Notes: a model not told the origin generated them from the sequence alone. A stretch of DNA of 64,000 nt from a candidate division FCPU426 bacterium (GCA_027451505.1 DAIDJD010000092.1:17588-81587); one strand, 5' to 3'. Shown: positions 29,939 to 60,991, counted from the stretch's first letter. Numbers and translations: made by a program.

Positions 29939-29943
29939 TCCGG

Positions 29944-33512: not shown

Positions 33513-33887
33513 TCAGCGCCCCAGGCGCGCCCAGAGGTCGGCCGCGTTGAGCCCCAGGGAGAGCAGCGCCAGGCCGGCGCTGAAGAACGTGACCGCCTTG
33601 TCGATCCTGGCGGTGTCCACGGGCCTTCGGGTCAGCTTGCGGATGAGGAAAGGGATGTAGGGCCCGGAACTGTCTTTTCCCAGCCCCAGACGGCGGCGCA
33701 CGGCCCATTGCGCCTCGGTAAGGGGGCAGGCCCCGAACACGATCCAGGCCGCCAGGGTCAGGGCGATGAGGCCCAGGTGCCAGGGGCGGAGGGTCCTGGG
33801 GATCCACCCCACCACGATGAACCCCACAATGCCCAAGTGCAATATATGTCCCAGCACGTTCAGGATCCGGTAGCCCCACACACGCAT
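33513..33887 (-). CDS. hypothetical small membrane protein (3-4 TM helices)
   Basis: only plausible minus-strand ORF in the recA-asmA gap; hydrophobic helices; convergent with recA. Confidence 0.45.
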   Translation of the reverse strand: MRVWGYRILNVLGHILHLGIVGFIVVGWIPRTLRPWHLGLIALTLAAWIVFGACPLTEAQWAVRRRLGLGKDSSGPYIPFLIRKLTRRPVDTARIDKAVTFFSAGLALLSLGLNAADLWARLGR

Positions 33888-34041
33888 CGCTTCCCCCCGT
33901 TCCCTGGGCCTGGAGGCCCGGCCTCCCCGCGGGTTCGGCCCCGGGGAGTTGGGGCATTATAGCGCCGGGGAGGGTCGCTGTCGCGTCCCGCCCCCGGGTC
34001 GACAAGGCGGAGAGGCTTTGGTACAAAGCTACCGTCGGCCG

Positions 34042-35631
34042 ATGATTTTCCCAGACCCCTTGCCCGAGGTTCCCTTGTCCTCCCCCTCCTCAGCCTTGAA
34101 ACCGTCCCCAGCGCCCTCGGGCGTCCGTCGTTGGCCTTGGTGGCTCAAATTGTCCGCGGCCGTGGCCCTTCTCTTCATCCTGGCCAGCTTGGTGGCCCCC
34201 CTGTTGCTGCCCTGGTCCCGCCTGAGGCGCCAGGCCGTCGACGCCGGAAGCCGACGCCTGGGCCGGACCCTGGCCATAGGCGACGTCAAGGTCGGGCTGT
34301 TCAGCGGGGTGACCCTGAGGGACTTCAGCCTGGCGAACGCCGGGGCGGGCTACGCCGACCAGCCCCTTTTCCGGGCCTCCGAGGCCCGGCTCAGCGTGTC
34401 CCTTTTGCCGCTGTTCTCCGGCCGTGTCGTGGTCGACCAACTGCTTTTCGTCAAGCCGGACCTCCTCCTGGAGACGGATCGGAGGGGCGTTTCCAACCTT
34501 AGCGGACTAGGGTCCGCGGCCCCCGGCTCCCAGGCCTCCCCCGCGCGGGCGTCCCAGGCTTCCTCCGCGCAGGCGCCCCAGGCCTTCCCGGTGCTGGTCG
34601 AGAACTTCGAGATCCAGGACGCCACCCTGACCCTGCGCGACGACCGCCGTCCGGGCCAGGACCGGGTCGTGCACCACTTCAACCTCAAGGTGCTCGGGCT
34701 GGGCCTGGAACATCCCGGCACCTTCCGGGTGGAGTCGGGCCTCACCCTGACGCAAGGGGACGGGAGCCCCTTGCCCGTGGCCTTGAGCGGGGTCTTCACC
34801 TACGACCCCGCCGCGGGCTCGCTGCGGGTGCAGCGCCTGAACCTCACGGCGCCGTCGCTGGCCGTGGACGCCTCCGGCCTGCTCACGGACGTGCGCGCGC
34901 CCAAAGGGAAGTTGGGGCTGGACCTCAAGGCCGATCTCGCGCATCTGCCGGTCCTGATCGCGGCCTTCAAGCCGACGGTCGGGAAAGCCCTGGAAGGGAT
35001 GCTGGCCGGCCAGGCCCAGGCGCACGCCGACGTCACCCTGGAAGGCGGGCCCGGCGGGATGGCCGATGGGCTCCGAGCCACCGCGACCTTCGGGATCACG
35101 GACGCGGTCCTGCAGGCCTGCTCCGACCAACTCAAGATCGCCCGCGCCCTTCCCTACGCGCCGGTTCGGGACCTCCTGTCGCGGCCCCTGACCTTCGCCA
35201 CGGTCCGGGGGGCGTTGGACTACGCCGGGGGCAAGGCCACGCTGACGAGCTTCGAGGCCGGCAGCGGGCCGGGCTTGAGGGGCGGCGCGATGTTCCTGCA
35301 GGCCTCAGGCTGGCTGATTCCGGGAGGGGCCGTCGACCTCAGCTTCGTGCCCCACCTCAATCCGGCCATGATGAAGGGCGGCCCCGGGCGACTGGCGGCC
35401 CTGGCGGATCCCCAAGGCTGGCCCACCCTGGACTGGATCGGGCTCAAGGGAGCCGACTTCGCGTCCGCCCGGCCGGACGTGACCCCGGTCCTAAAAAAGG
35501 CGGCGCGCGCCGTTTGGAGCCGCGCCAAGGGGCGTTTGACGCGGACCCTGGGCGCGCGGATCCGGCAGGCCCTGCCCAAAGGCCTGCCCTCCGGCGTGTC
35601 GCGCGGCCTGGGCCGCCTGTTCGGGAATTGA
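34042..35631 (+). CDS. AsmA-family outer-membrane biogenesis protein
   Basis: N-terminal anchor, then LAIGDVKVGLFSGVTLRDFSLAN... AsmA-like beta-rich repeats. Confidence 0.45.
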   Translation: MIFPDPLPEVPLSSPSSALKPSPAPSGVRRWPWWLKLSAAVALLFILASLVAPLLLPWSRLRRQAVDAGSRRLGRTLAIGDVKVGLFSGVTLRDFSLANAGAGYADQPLFRASEARLSVSLLPLFSGRVVVDQLLFVKPDLLLETDRRGVSNLSGLGSAAPGSQASPARASQASSAQAPQAFPVLVENFEIQDATLTLRDDRRPGQDRVVHHFNLKVLGLGLEHPGTFRVESGLTLTQGDGSPLPVALSGVFTYDPAAGSLRVQRLNLTAPSLAVDASGLLTDVRAPKGKLGLDLKADLAHLPVLIAAFKPTVGKALEGMLAGQAQAHADVTLEGGPGGMADGLRATATFGITDAVLQACSDQLKIARALPYAPVRDLLSRPLTFATVRGALDYAGGKATLTSFEAGSGPGLRGGAMFLQASGWLIPGGAVDLSFVPHLNPAMMKGGPGRLAALADPQGWPTLDWIGLKGADFASARPDVTPVLKKAARAVWSRAKGRLTRTLGARIRQALPKGLPSGVSRGLGRLFGN

Positions 35632-35650
35632 CCCCCGCCGTCGAGGAGCC

Positions 35651-36796
35651 ATGAAGGTCACCCTTTTCACCCGCGAATATCCGCCCCATGTCTACGGGGG
35701 CGCCGGGGTCCACGTGAAGTTCCTCGCGCGCGAGCTCGCGGCGATCATGGACGTGGACGTCCGCTGCTTCGGGGAGCAGGACCTGCGCGAGGGCCGGCTC
35801 AGCGCCGTGGGGTACGCCCCCTGGGCCGACCTCAAAGGTCCCCAAAAGTTCATCCCGGCCCTGGAGACCCTGTCGGTGAACCTGCTGTCCCAGGCGCGGG
35901 CCATCGATTCCGACGTGGTGCACAGCCACACCTGGTACGCCCATTTCGCCGGCCTCCTCGCCAAGATCCTCTACGGCAAGCCGTTCGTCCTCACCTGCCA
36001 CAGCCTGGAACCCCTGAGGCCCTGGAAGGAGGAGCAGCTCGGCAGCGGCTACGCCCTGAGCTCCTGGATCGAGCGCACCTGCGTGGAGTCCGCCGACGCG
36101 GTGGTGGCGGTCTCCAAGGGCATGCGGGAGGACATCCTCCGCCACTTCCGCGTCCCCGAGGAGCGGGTGGCCGTGGTCCACAACGGGATCGACCCGCTCC
36201 TTTGGACCCGCAGGGCCCTCTCCCCGGCGCTCAAGGGGCGCTGGGGGATCGCCGACGACTACGTGCTCTTCCTGGGCCGCTGCACCCAGCAGAAGGGCGT
36301 CGAGCACCTGGTCGACGCCGCCGGGGAAATCCCGGCCCAGGTCGTCCTGGCCATGGGCGGGGCCGACACCAAGGAATACGCCGACCGGGTGGCCGCCAAG
36401 ATCCGGGGCCGGGACAACATCGTGCACATCGACCGCATGCTGACCGAGGACGAGGCCGCCCAACTCTACAGCGGGGCCCGGGCCTTCGTTTGCCCCTCGA
36501 TCTACGAGCCCTTCGGGATCATCAACCTGGAGGCCATGGCCTGCGGGGCCCCGGTGGTGGCCTCGGCCGTGGGCGGCATCGTGGAGATCGTCGTCGACGG
36601 GGAGACCGGGCTGTTGGTGCCCCCGGGGGATCCGGCGGCCCTGGCCCGGGCCGTGCGGGCCCTTCTGGCGGACCCGGGCCGTGCCCGGGCCCTGGGCGAG
36701 GCCGGGCGGCGGCGCGCCGAGGAACGCTTCAGTTGGGCCTCCATCGCCTCCCGTACGCGGGACCTCTACGCCGGGTTGGTCCGGGCCGGGGCGTGA
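35651..36796 (+). CDS. GT4 glycosyltransferase of the GlgA/GlgM type (alpha-maltose-1-phosphate synthase / glycogen synthase family)
   Basis: N-terminus MKVTLFTREYPPHVYGGAGVHV is close to the actinobacterial GlgM/GlgA N-terminus; GT4 C-terminal E-X7-E region. Confidence 0.7.
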   Translation: MKVTLFTREYPPHVYGGAGVHVKFLARELAAIMDVDVRCFGEQDLREGRLSAVGYAPWADLKGPQKFIPALETLSVNLLSQARAIDSDVVHSHTWYAHFAGLLAKILYGKPFVLTCHSLEPLRPWKEEQLGSGYALSSWIERTCVESADAVVAVSKGMREDILRHFRVPEERVAVVHNGIDPLLWTRRALSPALKGRWGIADDYVLFLGRCTQQKGVEHLVDAAGEIPAQVVLAMGGADTKEYADRVAAKIRGRDNIVHIDRMLTEDEAAQLYSGARAFVCPSIYEPFGIINLEAMACGAPVVASAVGGIVEIVVDGETGLLVPPGDPAALARAVRALLADPGRARALGEAGRRRAEERFSWASIASRTRDLYAGLVRAGA

Positions 36797-38148: not shown

Positions 38149-38178
38149 TTGACGGAAAGAAGTTTCATAAAGTAAAAT
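38149..38178 (+). promoter_or_regulatory. candidate sigma-70 promoter TTGACG-N18-TAAAAT in an AT-rich island
   Basis: hexamers read at 38149-38154 and 38173-38178. Confidence 0.35.
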
Positions 38179-41881: not shown

Positions 41882-42000
41882 GGTTTGGGCCGGCCCCGTC
41901 CGACGGGTCGTCGGCCGCCTTGAGGGGGGCGGGGCGCTCCGCTATAATCCAACTCCGGCGCGACGCACCCGCGGGTGCCGGGATTTTCAAGGGGGCGGAC

Positions 42001-43302
42001 TTGGAGCTTTGCGTCATTGGGGTGGGGTACGTCGGCCTGGTCACGGGAACATGCTTCGCCGACCTGGGCAACCGGGTGGTGTGCGTCGACACCGACAAGC
42101 CCAAGATCGAGGGGCTGAAGAAGGGGCGCATCCCCATCTATGAGCCCGGACTGGAGGAACTGGTCCGCCGAAACCACAAGGACAAGCGCCTGGTGTTCAC
42201 CACGGAATTGAAGGAGGGCCTCAAGGGGGCCCAGATCGCCTTCATCGCGGTGGGAACGCCCAGCGCGGCGGGGGGCGAGGCCAACCTGGAGTACGTCAAG
42301 GCCGCGGCCCGGGGCATAGGGCGCCACTGTTCCGGCGACCTCATCGTGGTGGACAAGAGCACGGTGCCGGTGGGCATGGGCGACATGGTGGCCGGCATCA
42401 TCTCCGACGAGCTCGAGTCGCGCGGGGCCAAACATGCCGTCTCGGTGGTCTCCTGCCCCGAGTTCCTGCGCGAGGGTTCCGCGATCCACGACTTCATGAA
42501 CCCGGACCGGGTGGTCATCGGCTGCCGCGACCGCCGTCCCGCCGACAAGGTCGCGGAGCTGTTCAAGGGCCTGCCGGGGAAGACCATGATCACGGATCTG
42601 CGCTCGGCGGAGATGATCAAATACGCCAGCAACGCCTTCCTGGCCACCAAGATCAGCTTCATCAACGAGATCGCCAATTTGTGCGAGCGGGTCGACGCCG
42701 ACGTCGCCCAGGTGGCCGAAGGCATGGGGCTGGACGGCCGCATCGGCTCGGCTTTCCTCAACGCCGGCGCGGGCTATGGCGGGAGCTGCTTCCCCAAGGA
42801 CGTCAGCGCCCTGGTGCACATCGCGGAGAAGGAAGGCTACGAGTTCCGCATCCTTAAGAGCGTGATGGCCGTCAACGAGGCGCAGAAGCGCGGCGTCCTC
42901 GCCCGCATCAAGCGCCTCATGGGCACCTTCGAGGGCAAGACGGTGGGCGTGCTGGGCCTGGCCTTCAAGGCCAACACCGACGACATGCGCGAGGCGGTGA
43001 GCCTGGACGTGGTGGCGGGCCTGCTCGAGAAGGGCGCGCGGGTGCGCGCCTTCGACCCGGCCGCCACGGAGCACGCGCGCCGCATGCTGCCCCAGGCCCA
43101 ATACTGCGAGGACGCCATCGGCGCGGCCCGCGGCGCCCATTGCTTGGTGGTGCTCACGGAGTGGAACGAGTTCAAGGAACTCAACCTAGCGGCCGTGAAG
43201 AAGGTCATGAAGACCCCGCTGCTGGTCGACGGCCGCAACCTCTACGATCCGGCCAAGGTCAAGAAGCTGGGATTCTCCTACCAGGGCGTGGGCCGTTCCT
43301 AG
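42001..43302 (+). CDS. ugd: UDP-glucose 6-dehydrogenase family (nucleotide-sugar dehydrogenase)
   Basis: Rossmann start LCVIGVGYVGLVTG, catalytic GGSCFPKD; probable TTG start. Confidence 0.85.
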   Translation: MELCVIGVGYVGLVTGTCFADLGNRVVCVDTDKPKIEGLKKGRIPIYEPGLEELVRRNHKDKRLVFTTELKEGLKGAQIAFIAVGTPSAAGGEANLEYVKAAARGIGRHCSGDLIVVDKSTVPVGMGDMVAGIISDELESRGAKHAVSVVSCPEFLREGSAIHDFMNPDRVVIGCRDRRPADKVAELFKGLPGKTMITDLRSAEMIKYASNAFLATKISFINEIANLCERVDADVAQVAEGMGLDGRIGSAFLNAGAGYGGSCFPKDVSALVHIAEKEGYEFRILKSVMAVNEAQKRGVLARIKRLMGTFEGKTVGVLGLAFKANTDDMREAVSLDVVAGLLEKGARVRAFDPAATEHARRMLPQAQYCEDAIGAARGAHCLVVLTEWNEFKELNLAAVKKVMKTPLLVDGRNLYDPAKVKKLGFSYQGVGRS

Positions 43303-43334
43303 GCCTCCCGCCCGCCCTTGAGGCGAGGCCTCCC

Positions 43335-44444
43335 GTGATTAAAGTCCCCCTGATCGACCTGCCCGGCCAGGTCCGGCCCTTCAAGGCCCGCATCCTGAAG
43401 GACTGGGCCCTCATCCTGGAGCGGGGAGCCTACATCAACGGCCCCCACGGCAAGGCCTTCGAGGCCGAGCTGGCGGCCTATCTGGGGGCCCGTTTCGTGG
43501 TCGGCTGCAACAGCGGCACCGACGCCCTGGTGCTGTCCCTGCGCGCCCTGGGGGTCGGGCCGGGGCATTCCGTCCTGGTTCCGGCGTTCAGCTTCTTCGC
43601 GACGGCGGAGGCCGTGAGCCTGGTGGGCGCCCGTCCCGTGTTCTGCGACATCCTGCCGGACAGCTTCCTGCTGGACCCGGAGGACGCCCTGCGGCGGCTC
43701 ACCCCCGACTGCCGCGCGGCCATCCCGGTGCACCTGTTCGGCCGCGTTTTCGACGTGGCGGGATTCCGCGCCCGCCTGAAGGCGGCGGGGCGGCCGGACC
43801 TGCGGATCCTGGAGGACGGCTGCCAGAGCCTGGGTGCGGAACTCAAGGGCCGCAAGGCCGGCGCCTTGGGCGACGCCGCCGCCATCAGCTTCTATCCCAC
43901 CAAGAACCTGGCCGCGGCCGGGGACGCGGGCGCCCTGGCCACCGACGACGCGGATTTGGCAGCGCTGGCCCGGCGGCTGCGCGAGCACGGCATGCCCCGG
44001 CGCTACGAACATACCGAGATCGGGTACAACAGCCGCCTCGACGAGCTGCAGGCCGCCGTGCTCCGGCGCAAGCTTCCCAAGCTCGACGTCTGGACGCGCC
44101 GCCGGCGGGAACTGGCGACGGCCTACGCCCGGGTCCTCAAGGGCCTGCCGCTGGGGCTGCCCGCGCAGGCCGCGGGGGACTGCTGGCACCAGTACACCGT
44201 GCGCGTGCCGGGCGGCCGCCGCGACGCCCTCCGGGACCACTTGGCGGCCGCCGGGATCGGCACCTCGGTGTTCTACCCCGTGTGCATGCACCAGCAGGCC
44301 CCTTACGCCGCCGGGGCGCCCGCGCTGCCGGTGGCCGAGGCGGCGGCGCGTGAGGTGCTTTCGCTGCCGATGTTCCCGGGCCTCACGGCCGCGCAGATGC
44401 GTGCCGTCGGCGCCGCGGTGCGGGGCTTCTACGCCGGGCGCTAG
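43335..44444 (+). CDS. DegT/DnrJ/EryC1/StrS (ArnB-like) PLP-dependent sugar aminotransferase
   Basis: fold-type I aminotransferase; SFYPTKNL (PLP lysine region). Confidence 0.85.
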   Translation: MIKVPLIDLPGQVRPFKARILKDWALILERGAYINGPHGKAFEAELAAYLGARFVVGCNSGTDALVLSLRALGVGPGHSVLVPAFSFFATAEAVSLVGARPVFCDILPDSFLLDPEDALRRLTPDCRAAIPVHLFGRVFDVAGFRARLKAAGRPDLRILEDGCQSLGAELKGRKAGALGDAAAISFYPTKNLAAAGDAGALATDDADLAALARRLREHGMPRRYEHTEIGYNSRLDELQAAVLRRKLPKLDVWTRRRRELATAYARVLKGLPLGLPAQAAGDCWHQYTVRVPGGRRDALRDHLAAAGIGTSVFYPVCMHQQAPYAAGAPALPVAEAAAREVLSLPMFPGLTAAQMRAVGAAVRGFYAGR

Positions 44445-44502
44445 GCCGCGCGCGAACGGCGGAAGCCCCTCCGCCGAGGCTTCCCGCGCCCTCGCCTGGG
44501 CC

Positions 44503-46982
<2,480 letters not shown>

Positions 46983-47006
46983 AGCGTCCCGCAAAGGAGC
47001 CATGAG

Positions 47007-47783
47007 ATGAAGACCCCGTCCTTGTCCCAAACGCTGGCGTTGGCCCTCGCGCTGGCCGGCCCCGCGTCCCTGTCCGCCGCGGCCCGCCCCTCCCTCGCGG
47101 CGCAGCGCGCGGCGGTGCTCGCGCGGCTGCCCGCATCGGCGCCCCGGAGGCTTTCCGACCTCTACCGCGTCTTCGAGGGGGCGCTGGGCGAGGGCCTGGG
47201 CGTCCCGGTCCGCGCGTCCGTGGTCCGGCTTTGGGGCATCAGTTGGCAGCTTGTCCGCGACGCGCGCTTCCCCAAGGCGGAAGTGCACCTGAAGACCTTC
47301 CGGGCGCAGGGGTTGCGCTTCGACAAGGCCGATTTCATCTTCCGGGATTTGGTCGTGGATCGCAGGGCCCTGTGGAAGGGTCGCCTCGAACTCAAGGACG
47401 TGCGCGAATCCCAGACCCAACTGGTGTTCACCCTCAGGTCCCTGGACCAAAAGCTCGCGTCCTCGGACGGCACCGAACCCGGGATCCGCGCGGACCTCGA
47501 GGCTCAGCGCCTCGTGCTCACCGGCAAGGGCACGTTCCTGGGGCTGGCCTGCTCCACGGTGGAGACCTGCCGGCTCGTCTGGAACCCGGCGGCCCGCACG
47601 TTGAGCCTGGTCCCGGTGGAACGGATCTTCGGGGGGCGCAAGGTGCCCCACTGGCTCTGGGGCCTCGCCAAAGGAATGGTTCCGTCCGCTCCGGTGCTGG
47701 ATTTCGGCGCATCCTGGATCCCCTTCAACATCCGCCAAGTCCACGTCGGTTGGGACGAGGTGGACCTTTCGACCGACTGGTGA
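47007..47783 (+). CDS. hypothetical secreted protein
   Basis: signal peptide MKTPSLSQTLALALALAGPASLSAA; no recognised domain. Confidence 0.4.
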   Translation: MKTPSLSQTLALALALAGPASLSAAARPSLAAQRAAVLARLPASAPRRLSDLYRVFEGALGEGLGVPVRASVVRLWGISWQLVRDARFPKAEVHLKTFRAQGLRFDKADFIFRDLVVDRRALWKGRLELKDVRESQTQLVFTLRSLDQKLASSDGTEPGIRADLEAQRLVLTGKGTFLGLACSTVETCRLVWNPAARTLSLVPVERIFGGRKVPHWLWGLAKGMVPSAPVLDFGASWIPFNIRQVHVGWDEVDLSTDW

Positions 47784-47784
47784 G

Positions 47785-48816
47785 GTGCGCGTGATCCGGG
47801 ATGCCGTCATCCTCGCGGGGGGCTTCGGGACCCGCCTGCGACCCTTGACCTCGGGGACCCCTAAACCGCTCCTGCCCGTGGCGGGGCGGCCCTTCGTGGA
47901 GACCCTCCTGGCCCGCCTGGCCCAAGCGGGGGTGAAACGGGTGGTGCTGTCGGTGCACCACCAGCCCGAAGCCTGGCGGCGGGCCCTTCCGCGGCTGAGG
48001 CGGTTTTCCATGCGCCTGGAGCTGCGCCGGGAACCCGAGCCCCTGGGGACCGGAGGCGCGATCCGCTTCGCCTGGCCCGACCCCGATCGGCCCTGCCTGG
48101 CGCTCAACGGGGACGCGCTCAGCGATTTTGACGTCCGCTCGCTGTTGAGCCGGCACGCCGCCTTGGGCGCCGCCGCCACGTTGTGGGCGGTGTCGGTCCC
48201 GGACACGAGCGCCTTCGGCGTGCTTGAGGCGGGCCGGGACGGGCTGATCCGGCGTTTCTTGGAGAAGCCGCGGCCCGGACAGACCCGCAGCCGTCTCATC
48301 AACGCCGGCCTCTACGCCCTGGAGCCGGAGGTGCTCAGGCGCATCCCGGCCGGGCGCCCCGTCAGCGTGGAACGCGAGGTGTTCCCGGGCCTGCTTGAGG
48401 CGGGGCTGAAGGTCGGCCTATGCTCGCAGGGCAGCCCTTACTGGAACGACATAGGCACCCCGGCGGCCTACCTCAGGGCGAACCAGGATGTCCTGGCGGG
48501 CGCCCTTTGGCGCGGCAAGGGGCTGGCGCCGGCGCTGTGGGGACGCCCCGACCGCGGGCGCAACATCCTGGGCCGGGGGGTCCGGATGGGGCGGGGCGCC
48601 GAAGTGTCCTCCAGCGTGTTGGGGGCGGGGTGCCGGGTGGATGAGGGGGCCGGCGTCGTCGGTAGCGTGCTCATGGATGGGGTTCACGTGGGCTCCGGCG
48701 CCCGGGTGGAAGGGGCCGTGCTCGGAACCGGTTGCGTGGTGGGCGAAGGTTGCGTGCTGCGGCCGGGCGCGGTTCTGGGCGCGGGCACGCGCTTGGCCCC
48801 GGGAAGCCGCACGTGA
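47785..48816 (+). CDS. sugar-1-phosphate nucleotidylyltransferase with C-terminal left-handed beta-helix (mannose-1-phosphate guanylyltransferase-like)
   Basis: AILAGGFGTRLRPLT nucleotide-binding motif; hexapeptide repeats at the C-terminus. Confidence 0.7.
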   Translation: MRVIRDAVILAGGFGTRLRPLTSGTPKPLLPVAGRPFVETLLARLAQAGVKRVVLSVHHQPEAWRRALPRLRRFSMRLELRREPEPLGTGGAIRFAWPDPDRPCLALNGDALSDFDVRSLLSRHAALGAAATLWAVSVPDTSAFGVLEAGRDGLIRRFLEKPRPGQTRSRLINAGLYALEPEVLRRIPAGRPVSVEREVFPGLLEAGLKVGLCSQGSPYWNDIGTPAAYLRANQDVLAGALWRGKGLAPALWGRPDRGRNILGRGVRMGRGAEVSSSVLGAGCRVDEGAGVVGSVLMDGVHVGSGARVEGAVLGTGCVVGEGCVLRPGAVLGAGTRLAPGSRT

Positions 48817-49982
48817 GGCGGTGCCCCTGGGTCCGGGCGCTGATCTTGGCCCTGGCGGCGGCTTCGGTCCCTGCGGTTCGGGCCTCGGCGTCCGTCTCCG
48901 CGGCGCCGCCGCCGCCCCATGCCGCCGTCGGCCGCGGTCCGGATCACCTTCTCGCGGCCATCTGTTACCACCGTTTCGGCCCCGAGACGGCCAAGGATCC
49001 CTACCGCATTTCGCTCAAACGCCTCGCCGGGGAGCTGCGGTGGCTGCGCGCCCACGGGTGGCAGGGGGTGACCCTCGCCCAGGTCGGGCGCGCCCTCGAC
49101 GGTGACGCCGGCGCGCTTCCGCCCAAGGCGGTGCTGCTGACGGTGGACGACGGGTACCGGGCCGGGGCGGCCGCGGCTCCCGTGTTCCGGCGCTACGGCT
49201 ACCGCGCCGTCTTTTTCGTCGTGCCCTCGGTGCTGGGGCGCGGCGCCTTCCTCTCCTACGCCGACCTCCGCCGCCTCGAACGCGAAGGCTTCCAGGTGGC
49301 CAGCCACACCCTGACCCACCCGGACCTGGCCAAGGTGCCCCGGGGCCTGGACCCGACGGGCTACGCCCGCTGGGTGCGCCGGGAACTTGGGGAGCCCAAA
49401 CGCATGCTCGAGGAGGCCCTGGGCCACCCCGTGACCGCGCTGGCGTGGCCCTACGGCGCCTACAACCCGGCCATCGCGGCGGAGGCGCTCCGCCTGGGTT
49501 ACCGCCAGCTTTGGTCGGTGAGCGGGGGCCTCAACGACGACGCGACCCTGGACCGCTCGAGGTTGCGCCGCATCATCCTCATCGGCCATCCCAGCCTGGG
49601 CTCGTTCGCCCGGCGCCTGGAGTTGCTTCCCTTGAAGCCGTTCCCGGGCGGCATCCACGAGGGCGCCCTCTACTACCGCTCCAGCCTGCCCCTGCGCGTG
49701 GATCTGCCCCCCGGGGCCCGCGCCGTGCTGGGGGGCCGTCCCGTGACCCTGGACCGGCGCCACGGCTTCTGGATCGGCGCGGGGCTGAAGAACGGGTTCC
49801 ACTACCTCAATGTGGCGGAGGCGGATCACGGGATCGAACGCATGACGCCCTTCCTGTTCCAGGTGGCCCCCGACGCCTGGAGGCCCTGTTTTGAGGCCCT
49901 GGAGGCGCCGCAAGAGCCGCCGCGGGCCCTGCTTCCGGATGGCGGCGGGGCTTCCGGGGCCGCGCCCGAGAGGAGACCATGA
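48813..49982 (+). CDS. polysaccharide deacetylase (NodB-homology / CE4) family protein, secreted
   Basis: signal peptide; LTVDDGY and HTLTHPDL motifs; GTGA overlap with the upstream gene. Confidence 0.7.
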   Translation: MRRCPWVRALILALAAASVPAVRASASVSAAPPPPHAAVGRGPDHLLAAICYHRFGPETAKDPYRISLKRLAGELRWLRAHGWQGVTLAQVGRALDGDAGALPPKAVLLTVDDGYRAGAAAAPVFRRYGYRAVFFVVPSVLGRGAFLSYADLRRLEREGFQVASHTLTHPDLAKVPRGLDPTGYARWVRRELGEPKRMLEEALGHPVTALAWPYGAYNPAIAAEALRLGYRQLWSVSGGLNDDATLDRSRLRRIILIGHPSLGSFARRLELLPLKPFPGGIHEGALYYRSSLPLRVDLPPGARAVLGGRPVTLDRRHGFWIGAGLKNGFHYLNVAEADHGIERMTPFLFQVAPDAWRPCFEALEAPQEPPRALLPDGGGASGAAPERRP

Positions 49983-53249: not shown

Positions 53250-55073
53250 CTACTGCAGCGCCGCGGCGAAGAAGCGGCCGGCGATGGGCGCGGCCACGCT
53301 CATGCCGGTTCCCTCCCGGTCGCAGAACACCGCCACGGCCAGCTTGGGGTGGTCGGCGGGGGCGAAGCCGATGAACCAAGCGTCCAGGGCCGCGTGCGGA
53401 TGGGTGCGGGAGGTGCCGGTCTTGCCGGCGATGAGGATGCCCTCGACGCGCGCGCGTTTGCCGATGCCGTCCCCGCCTTCGACGGTGTCCTCCATGACCC
53501 GGGTCACCCGGGCCGCGGTCCCGGCGCGCATCACGCGGTCCTCCACGACCGGTTGGTCCTGGTACAGGATTTCACCCACCGGCCCGCGCACCGACTTGAC
53601 GATCTGGGGCTTGAGCAGGACCCCGCCGTCGGCGATCACCAAGGCCATCCGGGCCGCCTGCAGGGGGCTCACGCGGAACCCCTTGCCCAGCCCGCAGGAA
53701 AGGTTGGCCAAGTCGAACTGGTCGTCGGCCTCCTGGGGGGTGTAGGGGCGCGCGGCGCGGATATCGACGCGGCGACCGTCGGCCAAGTCGAAGCCCAAGT
53801 CCATGTCGCGGTTGAAGCCGAACAGGTTGATCATCCTGAGCAGGGCGTCCGGACCCATGGCCTCGGCCACCCGGTACAGCGCGATGTTGGAGCTCACGGC
53901 CATGGCCTGTTTGAGGCTGCCGATCTCGCCGTGGTACTCCCAGTCGCGGAAGATCTTGCCGTCCAAGGAGATGGCGGTCGGGGGGGTCATGGGGAAGAGC
54001 TTGGCCATATCCACGCCCGTCTCGAGGGCCGCGGCGGCGGTCATGATCTTGGCGATGGACCCGGGCTCGAAAAGGCCGTCCAGGGCGCGGTCCTGCAGGG
54101 GCTGGTTGGGGTCGTCCCGCAGGCGGCCCCACTGCCGGTCCACCTTCTCGGGCAGGAAGCTGGGCTGGCTCACGGCGCACAGCACCTCCCCCGTGGACAC
54201 GTCGAGGGCGACGATGGCCCCCTTGCGCCAGCCCAGCGCCTGGCTGGCCGCCTCCTGGAGGCGGGCGTCGAGCGTGAGTTGGACCTGGTCGGCGGGGAAG
54301 AGGGGCTTCAAGTCGCGCTCCAGGCCCGCATCGCCCCTTTTCTGGCTCAGGTATCCGATGACATGGGCCGTGAGCTGGGCGCGCGGGTATCCCACCGCGC
54401 CCAGGGTGTCGCCCGAGACGTCCTGGCGCGCCAGGGGCTCGCCGTTGCGGTCGATGATGCTGAAGAGGCTGCCCCGGGAGAGGGCGTCCTCGGCGATCCT
54501 CGCGCCGTTCTGGGCCTCGGTCAGGCCCGGATCGCCGGCCAGGGCCCGCTTGAAGTCGGCGTCGGCGCTGGCCACATGGCCCTGGGCCATGGCGCAGGCG
54601 CCTTCCCCGGCGCTCGCTTGGGGAAGTCCTGGGGAGAGCGCGATGGCCTGGTCGAATTCGGCGTGCGCCTCGTCCCAATCGCCGCGGTCGAGGTAGCGGT
54701 TGCCCTCGTCGCAGTGGGCCCGGGCGTAGGAAGCCCCCAGGCCCAGGCTGCGGGCCCGGGCGTACGCGGCCGCCGCGTCGGCCGGGCGGTCCAGGCGGTC
54801 CAGCGCCAAGCCCAGGGCGTCCTGGACCTGGGCGCTGGTGGGGTGGTCCGCCGCCAGGGCGTTGAGGCGGTCGAGCGCCTCCTCGGCGCGCCCGCTCTGG
54901 GCCAACCCCAGGGCGCGGTGGACCCGCGCGGGCAAACCGAATCCGAAGCGCCAAGCCACCCATAGCGCCAGGAGCGCCGCGGCGACGGTCATCAGCAGGG
55001 AGGCGACGGGCGGTCCTTGGCGCCGGCGGGAAGGTCGGCTCGAGGCGGGGGTCTTCAGGGGGGAGAGGGGCAT
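53250..55073 (-). CDS. class B penicillin-binding protein (FtsI/PBP2-type transpeptidase) with an N-terminal membrane anchor plus TPR repeats
   Basis: SxxK (GSIAKIM), SSN, KTGT motifs; upstream TPR-like repeats (YARAHCDEGNRYLDRGDWDEAHAEFDQAIAL); RBS AAGGAA before ATG at 55073. Confidence 0.8.
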   Translation of the reverse strand: MPLSPLKTPASSRPSRRRQGPPVASLLMTVAAALLALWVAWRFGFGLPARVHRALGLAQSGRAEEALDRLNALAADHPTSAQVQDALGLALDRLDRPADAAAAYARARSLGLGASYARAHCDEGNRYLDRGDWDEAHAEFDQAIALSPGLPQASAGEGACAMAQGHVASADADFKRALAGDPGLTEAQNGARIAEDALSRGSLFSIIDRNGEPLARQDVSGDTLGAVGYPRAQLTAHVIGYLSQKRGDAGLERDLKPLFPADQVQLTLDARLQEAASQALGWRKGAIVALDVSTGEVLCAVSQPSFLPEKVDRQWGRLRDDPNQPLQDRALDGLFEPGSIAKIMTAAAALETGVDMAKLFPMTPPTAISLDGKIFRDWEYHGEIGSLKQAMAVSSNIALYRVAEAMGPDALLRMINLFGFNRDMDLGFDLADGRRVDIRAARPYTPQEADDQFDLANLSCGLGKGFRVSPLQAARMALVIADGGVLLKPQIVKSVRGPVGEILYQDQPVVEDRVMRAGTAARVTRVMEDTVEGGDGIGKRARVEGILIAGKTGTSRTHPHAALDAWFIGFAPADHPKLAVAVFCDREGTGMSVAAPIAGRFFAAALQ

Positions 55074-55362
55074 GGAATTCCTTGGAATCGGAGGGGACCA
55101 TGGCGGCCGGCCGAAGGCGCATTTTAACAGAGCGGGCCCCCAGGTCAACAAACGCCGGAGCCCCGGCCGCGGCGTCGACCGTCGGTGGCCCGGGAGGCCC
55201 ACCTTGCGCCGCGGGGGCGTCCCGGGGCCGGTTCACGCCACCGCCTTGTGTTCTCCTTCGGTTTGGTCTATCGTTTCCACGGAATACCCGCCCCGCTCAA
55301 GGCCCAGGCGCACCGTCGGCCCGGGAGTTGGGGGCCCCACCTTTACTCACGTAGGAGCCGAC

Positions 55363-56093: not shown

Positions 56094-56123
56094 GGCGGCG
56101 CGAGCCGTCTCGCGTCCCGGGTC

Positions 56124-57656
56124 ATGTCCTCGCTCTCGCCTAATCTTCAACTCCGGCAGCAGCAGCGGTTGGTGATGACGCCGCAGCTCAAGCAGGCGTT
56201 GAAGATCCTCCAGCTCAACACCGGCGAGCTGGGCGACCTCATCGAGAACGAACTGGCCGAAAACCCGATGCTGGAGGAGATCGGATCCGAGGCCGAAGCG
56301 GCCGAGGCGGGGCCGTCCTCGGAATCCGAATCCGGATCGGCGGGCGAGGCCGACGAGGCGTCCCGGGCGGCTTCGCCCGAATCCGAGGCCGCCCCCGAGG
56401 GGCCGGTGGAGGCCCCGGTCGAGGCCACCCGGGAACTGGAATTGGAGGGGCCCGGGGCCGAACTCGACGACTGGGCCCAGTACCTCGATGACGACGGCAC
56501 CGACTACAGTTTGGCCCGTTCCGAGCGCGAGGACGGCGAAGAAAAGCCCGGATTCGAGAGCTTCCTTTCCCGGGCCGAGACCCTCCAGGAACACCTGTTG
56601 CGGCAGCTCGAGTCCGAGGAACTCCCCCCCGAGCAGCGGAGACTGTGCGAGGAGATCATCGGTCGGGTCGACGAGCGGGGCTACCTTGACGAGGGCCTCG
56701 AGGGGATAGGGCGCGACTGCGGCGCCGGGGCGCCCGAGCTGTTCCATGCCTTGCGCCGTGTCCAGTCCCTGGACCCTCCGGGGGTCGCCGCCCGGGACCT
56801 GCGCGAGTGCCTCCTGCTCCAACTTGAGGCTCTGGGTGCCAAGGGCGGGGCCGCGTGGGACGCGTTGGAAAGCCATTACGACGATGTGGTGCACCGGCGC
56901 TGGGACCGCGTCGCCAAGGCGTTGCGGCTCGATCCCGGGGAGGCGGCCCGGGCCGAGGCCCTGGTCGCTTCCCTGGAGCCCATACCCGGCCGGCCCTACG
57001 GGGGGGCCCCCAACGCGGGGGTGCGGGTGGACGCGGTGGTGGAGAAGGATCCGCTCACCGGCTCCTACCGGGTGGTCATCGCCGATGGCGGCCTGCCCCG
57101 CCTCGGCTTCAACGCCTACTACCGCCGCCTGATCAAATCCGGCGGGGCCTCGTTGGCCGATCCCGAGACCCGGGCCTGGCTCAAGGACCGCCAGCAGTCC
57201 GCGTTGTGGCTCATGCGCGGCATCCAGCAGCGCCACCGCACGCTGCGTCGGGTTTTGGAGGAAATCGTCCAGGAACAGAAGGGCTTCCTGGACAGCGGCC
57301 CGGCGGCGTTCCGTCCGCTGACGCTCAAGGACATCGCCGGCCGCACGGGCCTGCACGAAAGCACCATCTCCAGGGTTTGCACCGGGAAGTACGTGCAGAC
57401 GCCCCGCGGGGTCTTCGAACTCAAGTTTTTTTTCGCCTCCTCCCTGCGCACGGACGACGGCGAGACCAGCTCCCGCGCGGTCAAGGACCGGCTGCGGGAG
57501 CTCATCGGCGAGGAGGACGAGGGCCAGGCGGTGCGGTCGGACCTGGAATTGGCCGGGATCCTGAGCCAAGAGGGTGTGCGCATCGCCCGGCGCACGGTGG
57601 CCAAATATCGCGAGGAGTTGCGCATCCCCCCGGCCCATTTGCGTCGCAAAAGCTGA
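56124..57656 (+). CDS. rpoN: RNA polymerase sigma-54 factor
   Basis: region I LQLRQQQRLVMTPQLKQALKILQL; C-terminal RpoN box ARRTVAKYRE. Confidence 0.95.
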   Translation: MSSLSPNLQLRQQQRLVMTPQLKQALKILQLNTGELGDLIENELAENPMLEEIGSEAEAAEAGPSSESESGSAGEADEASRAASPESEAAPEGPVEAPVEATRELELEGPGAELDDWAQYLDDDGTDYSLARSEREDGEEKPGFESFLSRAETLQEHLLRQLESEELPPEQRRLCEEIIGRVDERGYLDEGLEGIGRDCGAGAPELFHALRRVQSLDPPGVAARDLRECLLLQLEALGAKGGAAWDALESHYDDVVHRRWDRVAKALRLDPGEAARAEALVASLEPIPGRPYGGAPNAGVRVDAVVEKDPLTGSYRVVIADGGLPRLGFNAYYRRLIKSGGASLADPETRAWLKDRQQSALWLMRGIQQRHRTLRRVLEEIVQEQKGFLDSGPAAFRPLTLKDIAGRTGLHESTISRVCTGKYVQTPRGVFELKFFFASSLRTDDGETSSRAVKDRLRELIGEEDEGQAVRSDLELAGILSQEGVRIARRTVAKYREELRIPPAHLRRKS

Positions 57657-57688
57657 GCCCTTCGCTCGCCCGCGCCGGCGGCACCCAA

Positions 57689-57770
57689 TTGACAGTGCCC
57701 GGGTTCCCGTGGTAGTTTCGCTTAGGGAAAAATCAATAAAATCAAGGCTTTTCATAAAAGTCGGGAACCC
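57689..57770 (+). promoter_or_regulatory. candidate internal promoter (TTGACA-N18-TAGTTT) flanked by 9-bp inverted repeat GGGTTCCCG...CGGGAACCC around an AT-rich tract upstream of hpf
   Basis: TTGACA at 57689-57694; IR arms at 57701-57709 and 57762-57770. Confidence 0.25.
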
Positions 57771-57783
57771 ACGGGGAGGCGCC

Positions 57784-58323
57784 ATGCAGATCCAGATCGC
57801 CGGGCAGCACGTCGAGGTGACGCCCGGTTTGCGCCAGTTCATCGCGGCCAAATTTGAGCGGCTCGGGGACATGCATCCCAGCGCGCGCAAGGCGGCCGTG
57901 GTGCTATCGGTGGAGAAGTACCGGCACACCGCCGAAATCCACCTCCACGTCGACGGCGTGGAATTGAGCGCCAAAAAGACCACCAAGGACATGTACGCCA
58001 GCCTGGAACAGGCCTTGGAGGCGATCGAGCAGCAGGCCGACAAGCGCAAGGACCGGCTGCGCACCAGCGGCAGCCTGCGGCGGGGCAAAGCCAAGGTCGA
58101 GCGCCTGCGGGCCCGGGGCGGGGCGGCCGACGCGGAGACGGCGCCTCCCCCCAAAGTGGCGCGCCTGCGGCCCTCGACGCCCCGTTCCCTGACCCTGGAG
58201 GAGGCCGTGGAGGCCCTGGAGGCTTCGGGCAACGGGTTCGTGCTGTTCAAGGAGCCCGGACGTTCCGGGACCCGCCTGCTCGTCCGGCGCCCGGACGCGA
58301 GCTACGCGCTCACCGAGGTCTGA
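57784..58323 (+). CDS. hpf: ribosome hibernation promoting factor (long form)
   Basis: MQIQIAGQHVEVTPGLRQFI...; C-terminal dimerisation extension; canonical position after rpoN. Confidence 0.9.
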   Translation: MQIQIAGQHVEVTPGLRQFIAAKFERLGDMHPSARKAAVVLSVEKYRHTAEIHLHVDGVELSAKKTTKDMYASLEQALEAIEQQADKRKDRLRTSGSLRRGKAKVERLRARGGAADAETAPPPKVARLRPSTPRSLTLEEAVEALEASGNGFVLFKEPGRSGTRLLVRRPDASYALTEV

Positions 58324-58333
58324 GGAGGCGGGA

Positions 58334-58798
58334 ATGCGTATCTCGGAATTCCTGGTCCCGGAGGCGGTGCTGGTCGACCTTAAGGCGACCAACAAGCGGG
58401 ACGTGCTCATCGAACTGCTCCAGCCCCTTGCCAAGGCCGGCCGCATCGCCGACGCCAAAAAAATGGTGGAGGTGCTCCTTGAGCGCGAGGAGCTGGGTTC
58501 CACGGGGATCGGCGGACGCATCGCCATCCCCCACGGCAAGGCGGCCCAGGTCCGGGAACTCTCGGCCGGCCTGGGCGTCTCCCGCGCCGGGATCCCGTTC
58601 GACGCGCTGGATGGGGAACCGGTGAACCTCTTCATCGCCCTGGTGGCCCCGGAGGGGTCGGCGGGCCTGCACCTTAAGGCCCTGGCCCGCGTCTCCAGCC
58701 TGCTCAAGGATCGGGCCTTCAAGAAGGCCTTGATGGGCGCCCAGACCCGCGAGGACGTTTTGCGCCTCATCGAGGCCGAAGAGAAGGACAAGGGCTAG
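58334..58798 (+). CDS. ptsN: PTS EIIA-Ntr (fructose/mannitol-type IIA)
   Basis: phosphorylatable His context RIAIPHGK; 154 aa; canonical position after hpf. Confidence 0.85.
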   Translation: MRISEFLVPEAVLVDLKATNKRDVLIELLQPLAKAGRIADAKKMVEVLLEREELGSTGIGGRIAIPHGKAAQVRELSAGLGVSRAGIPFDALDGEPVNLFIALVAPEGSAGLHLKALARVSSLLKDRAFKKALMGAQTREDVLRLIEAEEKDKG

Positions 58799-58802
58799 CC
58801 GC

Positions 58803-60071
58803 GTGCGCCTGCGCGTTCCCAGCGGCCCGGGCATCAAACGCTGGCTTTCGCTGCTGGTCCTGAGCATCCTGGTCCTGGCCTTCGCCCTCAGCGGCATGAT
58901 GGGCAGGATCTTCGCCGGATGGCGGGTGAACGTCGTCTCCCCGGTCACGCTGCGGCGGTGGACGCGCCAGGTCCAGAGCCTGCGTTTCGTGGACTACGCC
59001 CTCGCCATGACGGCGGTGTGGGGCATCACCCTGGCCCTGCGGCGCCTCTATTTCAACGTGCTGGCCTTCGCCGCGCGTGAACCCCAGGCGGCGAGCGCCC
59101 CGGCCCTCAGGGCCCGCCGGGCCCGGGGCCCGCGGGTGGTGGCCATCGGCGGCGGAACCGGGCTGCCCAACCTGCTCAGCGGACTGAAGGCCTACACGGA
59201 CCGGCTCACCGCCGTGGTGACGGTGGCCGATGACGGCGGCTCCTCGGGGCGCCTGCGCCGCGACCTGCGCATCCTCCCCCCGGGGGACCTGCGCAATTGC
59301 CTGGTGGCGCTGGCCGAGACCGAGCCGCTCATGGCGAGGCTCTTCCAGCACCGCTTCACGCGCCAGGGGGCCCTGGCCGGGCACAGCTTCGGCAACCTGT
59401 TCATCGCCGCGCTCACCGAGGTCACGGGCGATTTCGGCGAGGCGGTCCGGGCCAGCAGCAAGGTCCTGGCGGTCAGCGGGCAGGTGCTGCCGGTCACGTT
59501 GGAGGATGTGCGCCTCGTGGCCACTTTGGCGGACGGACGCGTCATCTCCGGCGAGAGCCGCATCACCTCGGCCGGCGGCGTCATCCGCAGGCTGGTGCTG
59601 GAGCCCGCCGGGGCGAGGCCGAACGTGGAGGTGCTCCAGGCGATCGCCCGAGCCGACGCCATCGTCCTTGGGCCGGGCAGCCTCTACACCAGCATCCTGC
59701 CCAACCTGCTGCTCGAACCTGTGGCGCGGGCGGTCGAACGCAGCGGCGCCCTGAAGATCTACGCCTGCAACGTCATGACCCAGCCCGGCGAAACGGACGG
59801 CCTGCCCGTCTCGGGGCACCTCAAGGCGCTGAAGGAGCATACGCGTTTGGCGCTGGTCGACACGGTGTTGGCCAACACCGAGCAACCCAGCGATGAAATC
59901 CTGGAGCGCTACGCCCGCCAGGGCCAGCACCCGGTCGCGGTGGACCGCGACGCCATCGAGGCGCTGGGGGTCCGCCTGGTCAAGGCCCGCCTGCTGGAGG
60001 CCCGGGACGGCCTCATCCGGCACCATCCCGGACGCCTGGCCCGCGCCGTCATCCGCTTGATCGTCCTATGA
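58803..60071 (+). CDS. YvcK/CofD-family (UPF0052, gluconeogenesis factor-like) protein with an extra N-terminal transmembrane segment
   Basis: VVAIGGGTGLPNLLSGLK...VVTVADDGGSSGRLR...LFQHRF...GHSFGNLF is near-colinear with B. subtilis YvcK; about 60-aa hydrophobic N-terminal extension. Confidence 0.75.
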   Translation: MRLRVPSGPGIKRWLSLLVLSILVLAFALSGMMGRIFAGWRVNVVSPVTLRRWTRQVQSLRFVDYALAMTAVWGITLALRRLYFNVLAFAAREPQAASAPALRARRARGPRVVAIGGGTGLPNLLSGLKAYTDRLTAVVTVADDGGSSGRLRRDLRILPPGDLRNCLVALAETEPLMARLFQHRFTRQGALAGHSFGNLFIAALTEVTGDFGEAVRASSKVLAVSGQVLPVTLEDVRLVATLADGRVISGESRITSAGGVIRRLVLEPAGARPNVEVLQAIARADAIVLGPGSLYTSILPNLLLEPVARAVERSGALKIYACNVMTQPGETDGLPVSGHLKALKEHTRLALVDTVLANTEQPSDEILERYARQGQHPVAVDRDAIEALGVRLVKARLLEARDGLIRHHPGRLARAVIRLIVL

Positions 60072-60481
60072 TCCCGGTATTGGTCCTGACCCACGGTGAA
60101 CTCGCGGCGGCGCTCCTCGGGGCGGCGGAATCCATCCTTGGGCGTCAGGACCGCGCCGCGGCCCTGGGCCTGGAGGCCTCGGAGAGCAGGGAAGCCTTCG
60201 CCGGACGGGTCCGCGCCGCGGCGGACCAACTGGGCGCGCCCGCGCTGGTCCTGGTCGACCTCGCGGGAGGCACACCCTGGAACGCGGCCTTGCTCTGCGG
60301 CCTGGCGTCCGATCCCGGCGAAATCCTGGCGGGCGTGAATCTCCCCGTGCTTTTGGAGGCGCTCGGCCGGAGGGACGGGCCCGGGGCCTCGCCCAGGACC
60401 CTGGCCGCGGACCTGGCGGCCCTGGGGGCCGCGGCCTTCGCCAGGGCGTCCGACCTCATGGCGCGCGGGGCGGCGGCGTGA
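60068..60481 (+). CDS. PTS mannose-family EIIA component
   Basis: MIPVLVLTHGELAA (active His in the THG context); ATGA overlap with the upstream gene. Confidence 0.8.
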   Translation: MIPVLVLTHGELAAALLGAAESILGRQDRAAALGLEASESREAFAGRVRAAADQLGAPALVLVDLAGGTPWNAALLCGLASDPGEILAGVNLPVLLEALGRRDGPGASPRTLAADLAALGAAAFARASDLMARGAAA

Positions 60482-60960: not shown

Positions 60961-60991
60961 GCCGGGGGGGCCTGGGCCACACGAGGAACGC

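Follow-up and report, generated by a model that had tools for sequence, protein, structure and literature searches.

Among the described systems in which an ArnT-like glycosyltransferase decorates lipopolysaccharide (LPS), the 4-amino-4-deoxy-L-arabinose (Ara4N) pathway, or Arn (PmrHFIJKLM plus PmrE/Ugd; Enterobacteria, Burkholderia, Cupriavidus), starts with the dehydrogenase Ugd, includes the DegT-family aminotransferase ArnB and the carbohydrate esterase family 4 (CE4) enzyme ArnD, and ends with the GT-C glycosyltransferase ArnT. In this pathway, ArnD deformylates the undecaprenyl-phosphate-linked, formylated sugar (UndP-Ara4FN) before it is flipped by ArnE/F (PMC12690121). In Rhizobium, RgtA-D together with RgtE add galacturonic acid (GalA) to the core or lipid A (reviewed in PMC4402001), and in Bordetella LgmA-C add glucosamine (GlcN) to the lipid A phosphates (PMC4993483). 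This work deals with a seven-gene cluster at positions 42001-49982 of a 64,000-nucleotide stretch of DNA (64 kb, hereafter the window) from a candidate division FCPU426 bacterium (GCA_027451505.1 DAIDJD010000092.1:17588-81587), which the original prediction had read as echoing Arn and as suggesting a new amino- or deoxy-sugar. Compared with related loci, the cluster corresponds to two conserved arms joined directly and not to one linear pathway. The interval is, as a fairly probable reading, the glycosyltransferase-poor remnant of an LPS-type envelope glycan locus, with a periplasmic ArnT-fold decorating enzyme, located between lptD and pyrF.

The G+C content of the window is around 70%, and for this reason mechanical lists of open reading frames are full of false frames. 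Genes were framed with third-position GC together with Pfam and NCBIfam scans of the window, which showed that the interval is exactly filled by seven intact genes on the plus strand. These encode, in this order, Ugd, a DegT aminotransferase, a GT-C glycosyltransferase of the Pfam family PMT_2, a short-chain dehydrogenase/reductase (SDR) similar to GDP-L-fucose synthase (Fcl), a protein called g5, a nucleotidyltransferase with a C-terminal left-handed beta-helix (NTP_transferase-LbH, hereafter GMPP) and a CE4 deacetylase, and they are separated by -4 to +58 bp (Table 1). The g5 gene was not mentioned in the gene list of the original prediction, whose assignments of ugd, the ArnT/PMT-like GT-C, fcl and the sugar-1-phosphate nucleotidyltransferase are all borne out by the matches described below.

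The proteins most similar to the GT-C were found in metagenomes and metagenome-assembled genomes (MAGs) labelled 'bacterium' or 'candidate division FCPU426'. Nine related loci, with a PMT_2 protein 48-70% identical to the GT-C of the window (L005 is an FCPU426 MAG), were compared, and orthology was assigned by tblastn. The frame common to the window and these loci is lptD-ugd-degT ... g5-GMPP-CE4-pyrF. In the relatives it encloses a 10-17 kb block of GT9, Wzy_C (WaaL/Wzy-type), WbaP-type Bac_transf, Wzx and Leloir GT1, GT2 and GT4 genes, with up to four GT9 copies per locus. Judging by these gene orders, the lineage has a conserved lptD-to-pyrF glycan locus consisting of two stable arms around a variable core/O-antigen-type assembly block. 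In the window the two arms are joined and the GT-C alone is left from the assembly block: the left arm comprises lptD, ugd and degT, followed by the GT-C gene, and the right arm comprises (fcl), g5, GMPP and CE4, followed by pyrF. The window locus differs from all nine related loci in lacking genes for Leloir glycosyltransferases, WaaL/Wzy, WbaP and Wzx, and the GT2 gene located between g5 and GMPP in the two closest relatives is also lacking. As L086 also has the DegT-PMT_2 junction, and L001 and L090 the PMT_2-Fcl junction, both joints of the window recur elsewhere and a misassembly is unlikely.

The recurrence of these gene neighbourhoods in relatives also means that the grouping of the seven genes is not due to chance, and the linkage is conserved as the original prediction had expected. 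Nevertheless, a single self-contained new-sugar pathway finds no support in the comparison: in relatives the genes stand as two arms on either side of a variable block of the LPS core/O-antigen type, Fcl is shared only with the two closest relatives, and the enzymes that should link the steps are absent (Gmd, a GT2 acting on polyprenyl phosphate and an enzyme that forms a keto-sugar). The view that the original prediction named as its own refutation, with housekeeping genes of the O-antigen type, comes closer to the synteny seen, although the linkage is conserved nonetheless. Concerning the described Wzx/Wzy O-antigen and LPS core (waa/rfb-type) loci, the frame of the relatives resembles them in combining GT9, Wzy_C, Bac_transf, Wzx and GT1/2/4 genes with ugd, degT, fcl and a manC-like gene. 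The window differs in that the assembly genes are all absent, which leaves just the sugar-supply genes together with the GT-C, g5 and the CE4; GT9, Wzy_C, an initiating phosphoglycosyltransferase and Wzx were not detected by Pfam scans of the 64 kb or by tblastn with the queries of the relatives.

Table 1. Features of the window (positions counted from its first nucleotide) and gene order in the related loci.
Feature	Position	Strand	Basis or remark
Divergent LptD homologue, 810 aa	39449..41881	+	Signal peptide, weak LptD_N, profile match; left border of locus
Sigma-70-like promoter match TTGAGG-17-TATAAT	41920..41948	+	119-bp gap before ugd; 10/12 positions; consensus match only
ugd, UDP-glucose 6-dehydrogenase	42001..43302	+	Pfam and NCBIfam
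DegT/DnrJ/EryC1-family pyridoxal phosphate (PLP) sugar aminotransferase	43335..44444	+	PF01041, 342 bits
ArnT-fold GT-C (Pfam PMT_2), 481 aa	44503..45948	+	PF13231; ~10-12 transmembrane helices and C-terminal periplasmic domain
GDP-L-fucose synthase (Fcl/GMER)-like SDR	45945..46982	+	NCBIfam Fcl; alternative start ATG at 45966
g5, predicted secreted protein, 258 aa	47007..47783	+	No family match
GMPPB-type sugar-1-phosphate nucleotidyltransferase, C-terminal left-handed beta-helix	47785..48816	+	Pfam NTP_transferase and LbH
Secreted CE4 polysaccharide de-N-acetylase, PgaB/IcaB type	48813..49982	+	PF01522
DUF2784 gene	33513-33956	-	One of two minus strand genes in the window
TPR-PBP gene	53250-55232	-	The other minus strand gene in the window
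Related locus L002/L003			FolC, MalK, LptD, Ugd, GT9, DegT, GT9, Wzy_C, PMT_2, Bac_transf, ... GT9, Wzx
Related locus L084			Gene order as L002/L003
Related locus L005			FolC, MalK, LptD, Ugd, DegT, GT9, PMT_2, Wzy_C, Bac_transf, Wzx, methyltransferase, GT2, GT4, GT2
Related locus L086			FolC, MalK, LptD, Ugd, DegT, PMT_2, three GT9, Bac_transf, GT1, second PMT_2
Related locus L085			LptD, Ugd, GT9, DegT, three GT9, Bac_transf, GT1, PMT_2, Wzx, GT2, two Wzy_C, g5, HisK (histidine kinase), CE4, pyrF, pyrE
Related loci L001/L004 and L090/L091 (closest, 67-70%)			... GT9, PMT_2, Fcl, g5, GT2, GMPP, CE4, pyrF, pyrE, cinA, ligT, PBP
Related locus L089			... GT9, g5, 240-aa protein, GMPP, 236-aa protein, HisK, CE4, pyrF ...
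Related locus SS2e3ptU			... GT9, g5, GMPP, cNMP-binding protein, HisK, CE4, pyrF ...

The 810-aa protein encoded upstream of ugd did not reach any Pfam model at default thresholds. The LptD_N model scored 19-23 bits in this protein and two orthologues (cutoff 20.4), and a profile of the three orthologues matched the solved LptD structures 8h1r (E 1.9e-7 over ~240 residues) and 7omm (E 1e-3). The protein also has a signal peptide and an aromatic C-terminus ending in QYGY. Taken together, this gene is a divergent lptD, and therefore the cluster begins right after the gene encoding the LPS-assembly porin. The same arrangement, with lptD upstream of ugd, was found in L002, L005, L084, L085 and L086.

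Regarding the GT-C, its start was placed at 44503 because a 481-aa protein in the database is 100% identical to it. The protein scored 66 bits with PF13231 (cutoff 26.1) and had no match in NCBIfam, ArnT models included. As a single sequence it had no detectable match in the PDB, and a 19-sequence family profile matched ArnT alone (5ezm, E 9e-4, N-terminal 200 residues only). AlphaFold2 (AF2) models of the GT-C and of g5 (see below), with predicted local distance difference test (pLDDT) scores of 89 and 87, were used for fold searches. With Foldseek, the best matches of the GT-C model were the ArnT structures 5ezm and 5f15 (E 2e-10, TM-score 0.63-0.66, 16-17% identity), followed by AglB/OST (~1e-6), Pmt4 (9e-5, TM-score 0.50) and Pmt1/Pmt2 (~1e-2, TM-score ~0.3); ALG also matched. 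Residues D23-E24 and D115 are invariant, and D23-E24 aligns with the P-D-E of ArnT, an enzyme whose residues have known catalytic roles. The Pfam score, the multi-span GT-C fold and the acidic D-E motif in the first periplasmic loop agree with a PMT_2/COG1807 (GT83/GT39-like) protein, and the model indicates that it is an ArnT-fold enzyme of a distant subfamily. This subfamily, which is widespread, is characterized by the motif DEAYYW...YYDQGP. As the GT-C is structurally closest to ArnT, a periplasmic transfer dependent on polyprenyl phosphate is plausible, in line with the original prediction.

Since fungal Pmt4 is a significant fold match and some homologues of the GT-C also match PF02366 (PMT), protein O-mannosylation was considered too. 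According to this explanation, the GMPPB-type guanylyltransferase within the cluster would provide GDP-mannose, an unlinked Ppm1/DPM1-like GT2 would convert it into polyprenyl-phosphate-mannose, and the PMT_2 protein would act on secreted proteins like the actinobacterial Pmt. However, the ArnT fold is a far better match than any Pmt, and neither a MIR domain nor a PMT C-terminal module was detected in the GT-C with Pfam. Moreover, GMPP and GT-C lie in separate arms in the relatives, 10-17 kb apart, L086 has the GT-C without a nearby GMPP, and the neighbours are LPS genes (lptD, GT9, WaaL-type). Taken together, O-mannosylation seems very improbable, and the LPS-type remnant is the reading followed here.

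A more distant set of 75-78 PMT_2 loci (26-43% identity), from Desulfobulbaceae, Acetobacteraceae, Gemmatimonadota, Armatimonadota, Nitrospirota and others, was also inspected. No ugd, degT, fcl, g5, GMPP or CE4 gene was found near PMT_2 in any of them. Instead, a GT2 gene, GtrA-fused or bearing transmembrane helices, is present within 10 kb in 32 of the 78 loci, usually adjacent, and LptFG-like (12 loci), GT9 (9) and PAP2 (6) genes are also found nearby; one GT-C homologue in the database is a PAP2-PMT_2 fusion. These neighbourhoods fit a GT-C that would use a polyprenyl-phosphate-sugar and act on LPS.

In this respect the Rgt and Lgm systems, compared here by their published descriptions, are of interest: an ArnT-like GT-C acts on LPS with a polyprenyl-phosphate-sugar donor, and the supply of UDP-glucuronic acid (UDP-GlcA) in Rgt or the deacetylation step in Lgm finds a parallel in genes of the window. 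Distant homologues of the GT-C are located beside GtrA-fused GT2, PAP2, GT9 or LptFG genes, whereas the window differs in having no donor GT2 of the RgtE/LgmA type and no UDP-GlcA 4-epimerase. By analogy, the working of the cluster is likely to be closer to these ArnT-family LPS decorations, set in a waa/rfb-type locus, than to Arn.

In relation to the sugar-supply genes, the three UDPG_MGDP_dh domains of Ugd (N-terminal, central and C-terminal) are full length, and its best NCBIfam model is TuaD (558 bits). The orthologues in the relatives are 78-83% identical. The possibility that Ugd is a UDP-GlcNAc dehydrogenase of the WbpA type, working with a WbpE-like aminotransferase, was also considered and discarded, as the models for N-acetylhexosamine (HexNAc) dehydrogenases reached only 174 bits (UDP-ManNAc dehydrogenase) and 74 bits. 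As for the aminotransferase, whose orthologues are 56-76% identical, the best PDB matches were 7b0d (276 bits), DesV (2oga, 273), WbpE (256) and QdtB (232), followed by perosamine synthase (180) and ArnB (146-150), and the NCBIfam ArnB model gave 166.8 bits against a cutoff of 631. DesV, WbpE and QdtB are sugar C-3 aminotransferases. Judging by these scores, the enzyme is nearest to them and not to ArnB; the DegT family membership given in the original prediction stands, and the 'ArnB-type' label is unsupported because ArnB scores far below DesV, WbpE and QdtB.

The SDR scored 299.7 bits with the NCBIfam GDP-L-fucose synthase model, below the equivalog cutoff of 500, and the next family gave at most 92 bits. 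In the PDB it matched solved Fcl structures with about 229 bits and E ~1e-66 (1bws, and 8du0 with E 6e-67). Aligned with 8du0, the protein keeps the T/S-x-C and Y-x-x-x-K motifs and the epimerase/reductase His of Fcl, which have catalytic roles. It shares 84% identity with its orthologue in L001, and Gmd is absent from the window, L001 and L090. The possibility of a hidden decarboxylase of the ArnA/UXS type was discarded, since the protein is Fcl-like with Fcl catalytic residues and no ArnA model appears among its 22 NCBIfam matches. Furthermore, the best matches of the nucleotidyltransferase were mannose-1-phosphate guanylyltransferases (NCBIfam man1P_GTase, 268 bits, cutoff 440; VTC1, GMPPB and Leishmania GMPP in the PDB, ~150 bits), and its orthologue in the relatives is 64% identical, so it is probably an enzyme of this kind.

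The CE4 protein scored 74.3 bits with PF01522 (Polysacc_deac_1, cutoff 23.1) and carries the Asp-Asp and His-x-x-x-His motifs of carbohydrate esterase family 4, with DDG at residue 112, HTLTH at 165 and WPYG at 212. Its N-terminus presents a hydrophobic segment and an Ala-rich cleavage-like site, and it is predicted to be exported. The signal peptide and the DDG, H[ST]xxH and WPYG motifs are conserved in three orthologues, and the identity in the relatives is 57-64%. All its solved relatives are of the PgaB, BpsB, IcaB and PplD type, with no ArnD among them. PgaB, IcaB and BpsB are periplasmic or extracellular poly-beta-1,6-GlcNAc de-N-acetylases, and the window protein, also exported, shares their motifs, including the N-terminal His of PgaB. 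It differs from PgaB in lacking the C-terminal glycoside-hydrolase-like domain, in place of which it carries an extra C-terminal region of ~150 aa. Therefore, from the earlier description as an ArnD-like CE4, the family is confirmed and the likeness to ArnD is not. The stop codon of this gene overlaps the ATG of pyrF.

The second protein predicted to be secreted, g5, had no match in Pfam or NCBIfam. The family comprises 31 database clusters at 90% identity, all labelled hypothetical, and gave 17 hits among 1.84 billion representative proteins, so it is very narrow and lineage-restricted. Its C-terminus is invariant (SWIPFNIQEVHVGWDxVxLSTxW), and the model of g5, though confident, had no fold match in the PDB (best E 0.14). 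The orthologues (50-54% identity) follow the last GT9 gene and precede the GMPP/CE4 genes in L001, L085, L089, L090 and SS2e3ptU. This fixed position suggests a periplasmic role of g5 tied to the same glycan as its neighbours.

Considering the relatives of the CE4, the products of the right arm (g5, GMPP and CE4), perhaps with the GT-C as well, could serve a secreted exopolysaccharide or biofilm polymer, for example a partly de-N-acetylated HexNAc polymer similar to poly-N-acetylglucosamine (PNAG), with the CE4 acting like PgaB/IcaB. In some relatives the CE4 gene is preceded by a GAF-PAS histidine kinase gene, which would suit a regulated modification of an exopolysaccharide. Nevertheless, PNAG synthesis and export genes, such as a synthase of the PgaC/IcaA type or a porin of the PgaA type, are missing from the window and from all the related loci, the block of the relatives is of the Wzx/Wzy and GT9 type, and lptD borders the locus. 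This makes an exopolysaccharide function improbable in comparison with the LPS-type remnant. The GAF-PAS kinase is encoded directly upstream of CE4 in L085 (17704-19320), L089 (13321-15387) and SS2e3ptU (12289-14481), and in one of these three the kinase gene is itself directly preceded by a gene for a cNMP-binding protein. Neither gene occurs in the two closest relatives or in the window itself.

The remaining explanation is a variant of the Arn pathway acting on lipid A with a new amino or deoxy sugar, in which Ugd, DegT, CE4 and GT-C would be the counterparts of PmrE, ArnB, ArnD and ArnT. These four protein families indeed coincide with Arn components, with Ugd at the start, a GT-C at the end and LPS as a likely common target; the nearest solved structure of the GT-C is ArnT, and Ugd, DegT and PMT_2 are linked beside lptD in six related loci. 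Nonetheless, scanning every supported gene of the 64 kb with Pfam revealed no ArnA, no ArnC or other GT2, no Gmd, and no GT9, Wzy_C, Bac_transf or Wzx, in agreement with the absence of ArnA and ArnC that had been noticed originally. Likewise, neither a formyltransferase nor a UXS/ArnA-like SDR is encoded by any gene of the 64 kb, so both domains of ArnA are lacking; tblastn of the window with the GtrA-fused and transmembrane GT2 queries from relatives found none, and the gaps within the cluster leave no room for small membrane proteins such as ArnE/F. The sole SDR of the cluster is Fcl-like, and most relatives lack it. The aminotransferase stands closer to DesV, WbpE and QdtB than to ArnB, and the GT-C shows low identity to ArnT. 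The exported, PgaB-like CE4 cannot fill the role of ArnD because the latter acts before flipping (PMC12690121). In addition, ugd and degT are not adjacent in L002, L084 and L085, where a GT9 gene lies between them. Overall, the resemblance of the cluster to Arn is shallow, and an Arn variant is highly unlikely.

Returning to the LPS-type remnant, the families, folds, export signals, motifs, synteny and lptD border described above allow a scheme to be proposed, in which the substrates, the sugar and the acceptor are tentative. Ugd would produce UDP-GlcA and the GMPPB-type enzyme GDP-mannose, while Fcl could lead to GDP-L-fucose provided that Gmd is encoded elsewhere. The DegT enzyme would act on a keto-sugar nucleotide supplied by another enzyme encoded elsewhere and would aminate it, probably at C3. 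A GT2 encoded outside the window would load one sugar onto polyprenyl phosphate and, once this lipid-linked sugar is flipped, the ArnT-fold GT-C may move it at the periplasmic face onto the lipid A or core of LPS. We infer this acceptor because of the lptD, GT9 and WaaL-type neighbours in the relatives and the LptFG, GT9, PAP2 and GtrA-fused GT2 genes found by the distant homologues. The secreted CE4 could then de-N-acetylate a HexNAc residue of the exported glycan, and g5 would act in the same compartment. The confidence in any particular sugar or acceptor is much lower than that in the overall reading.

In favour of this reading, the genes are tightly spaced, a promoter-like site lies upstream of ugd, and CE4 and g5 are predicted to be exported. 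Several points weigh against it. Shared direction is no evidence of shared function here, because 47 of the ~49 supported genes of the window are on the plus strand, and the array runs on unbroken after CE4 into pyrF, pyrE, cinA and ligT until it stops against a convergent PBP gene; with such co-directionality and such a run, operon membership tells little about function. To our knowledge, no member of the GT-C subfamily has a tested function, and the identity of the GT-C to ArnT is just the 16-17% given above. The steps from nucleotide sugar to GT-C cannot be traced, since the 64 kb contains no donor-forming GT2, flippase, Gmd or keto-sugar-forming enzyme. As there is no lipid A (lpx) or Kdo gene within the window either, the presence of LPS is deduced from the lptD, AsmA-like and GT9 genes only. 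Finally, the glycosyltransferase block lacking here may simply be present at another place in the genome, outside the 64 kb.

It could also be that ugd, degT and the GT-C gene form a self-standing, undescribed system for lipid A or inner-core decoration, attaching an amino sugar (possibly 3-amino or derived from a uronic acid) by means of an ArnT-fold enzyme from an uncharacterised subfamily, with g5 and CE4 as new periplasmic accessory factors. The trio is located by lptD in every relative examined and is retained here without assembly genes. We give this idea a small chance.

All the components of the cluster belong to known families except the orphan g5; what is new is the host lineage, the uncharacterised GT-C subfamily, g5 and the unusual loss of every assembly gene from the locus. 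A search of the literature on FCPU426 and PF13231 found nothing on the envelope glycans of this lineage. If the LPS-type reading is true, it describes routine envelope-glycan biology in a phylum-level lineage without a cultured member and changes no concept. Its value would be one of annotation, marking lptD, a subfamily of ArnT-fold LPS transferases and a conserved lptD-to-pyrF glycan locus. As a natural 'minimal' locus, it also shows which genes persist without the assembly block (ugd, degT, GT-C, g5, GMPP and CE4). The widespread GT-C subfamily, often paired with GtrA-fused GT2, LptFG, GT9 or PAP2, is a reasonable target for studies of lipid A or core modification.

Some other features of the related loci are worth mentioning. 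The L085 gene at 12897-13904 (+), just after PMT_2 and Wzx, encodes the sole GT2 of these loci with two C-terminal transmembrane helices, like polyprenyl-phosphate glycosyltransferases of the ArnC/GtrB type; in this relative it may be the enzyme that forms the donor. The GT2 proteins of L001 (276 and 310 aa) were examined as ArnC/DPM1-type candidates and rejected, since they matched generic NCBIfam models weakly and have no transmembrane helices. In L086, a second, divergent PMT_2 paralogue (17346-18752, +) ends the glycan block and is followed by an RHS/YD-repeat toxin-like gene (19357-21494, +) which replaces the g5-CE4-pyrF arm. In MAGs of Goldiibacteriota, Firestonebacteria and FCPU426 (L008, 6866-8383+; L011, 771-2225+; L012, 178-1680+), a PMT_2 paralogue 35-37% identical to the GT-C of the window has a gene for an LptF/G-like permease immediately after it. 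In Desulfobulbaceae (L087, L019, L036) the order is LptFG, LPG_synthase_TM, GT9, PAP2 and PMT_2.

With respect to the transcription signals, a consensus scan of the region found three sigma-70-like sites versus 0.6 expected. Besides the one before ugd, a second near-consensus match (10/12 positions) is located at 38149-38178 (+), before a MalK-like ATPase gene. These two have TATAAT or TAAAAT boxes, in a genome of ~70% G+C. Terminator-like sites were no commoner than expected by chance.

In the rest of the window, genes for a PAP2-family phosphatase and a GT4 glycosyltransferase (29716-30840 and 35540-36796, both +) are located 5-12 kb upstream of the cluster, and an AsmA/DUF748 protein is encoded near them at 33874-35631; these may represent further envelope functions. 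A sigma-54 activator gene is found at 4865-5980. The region 56094-64000 (+) contains an array of rpoN, hpf, ptsN (EIIA-Ntr-like) and CofD/YvcK-like genes, followed by a mannose-family phosphotransferase system (EIIA, EIIB, IIC, IID) and ptsI. Regarding composition, the AT skew of the dnaK-groES-groEL stretch (8001-12000) is strongly positive (0.23-0.27), which sets it apart from the remainder of the window, and the G+C content is lowered to 0.60-0.63 in the bins at 6-8 kb and 24-26 kb. Overlaps of 4 bp are common between adjoining genes of the window.

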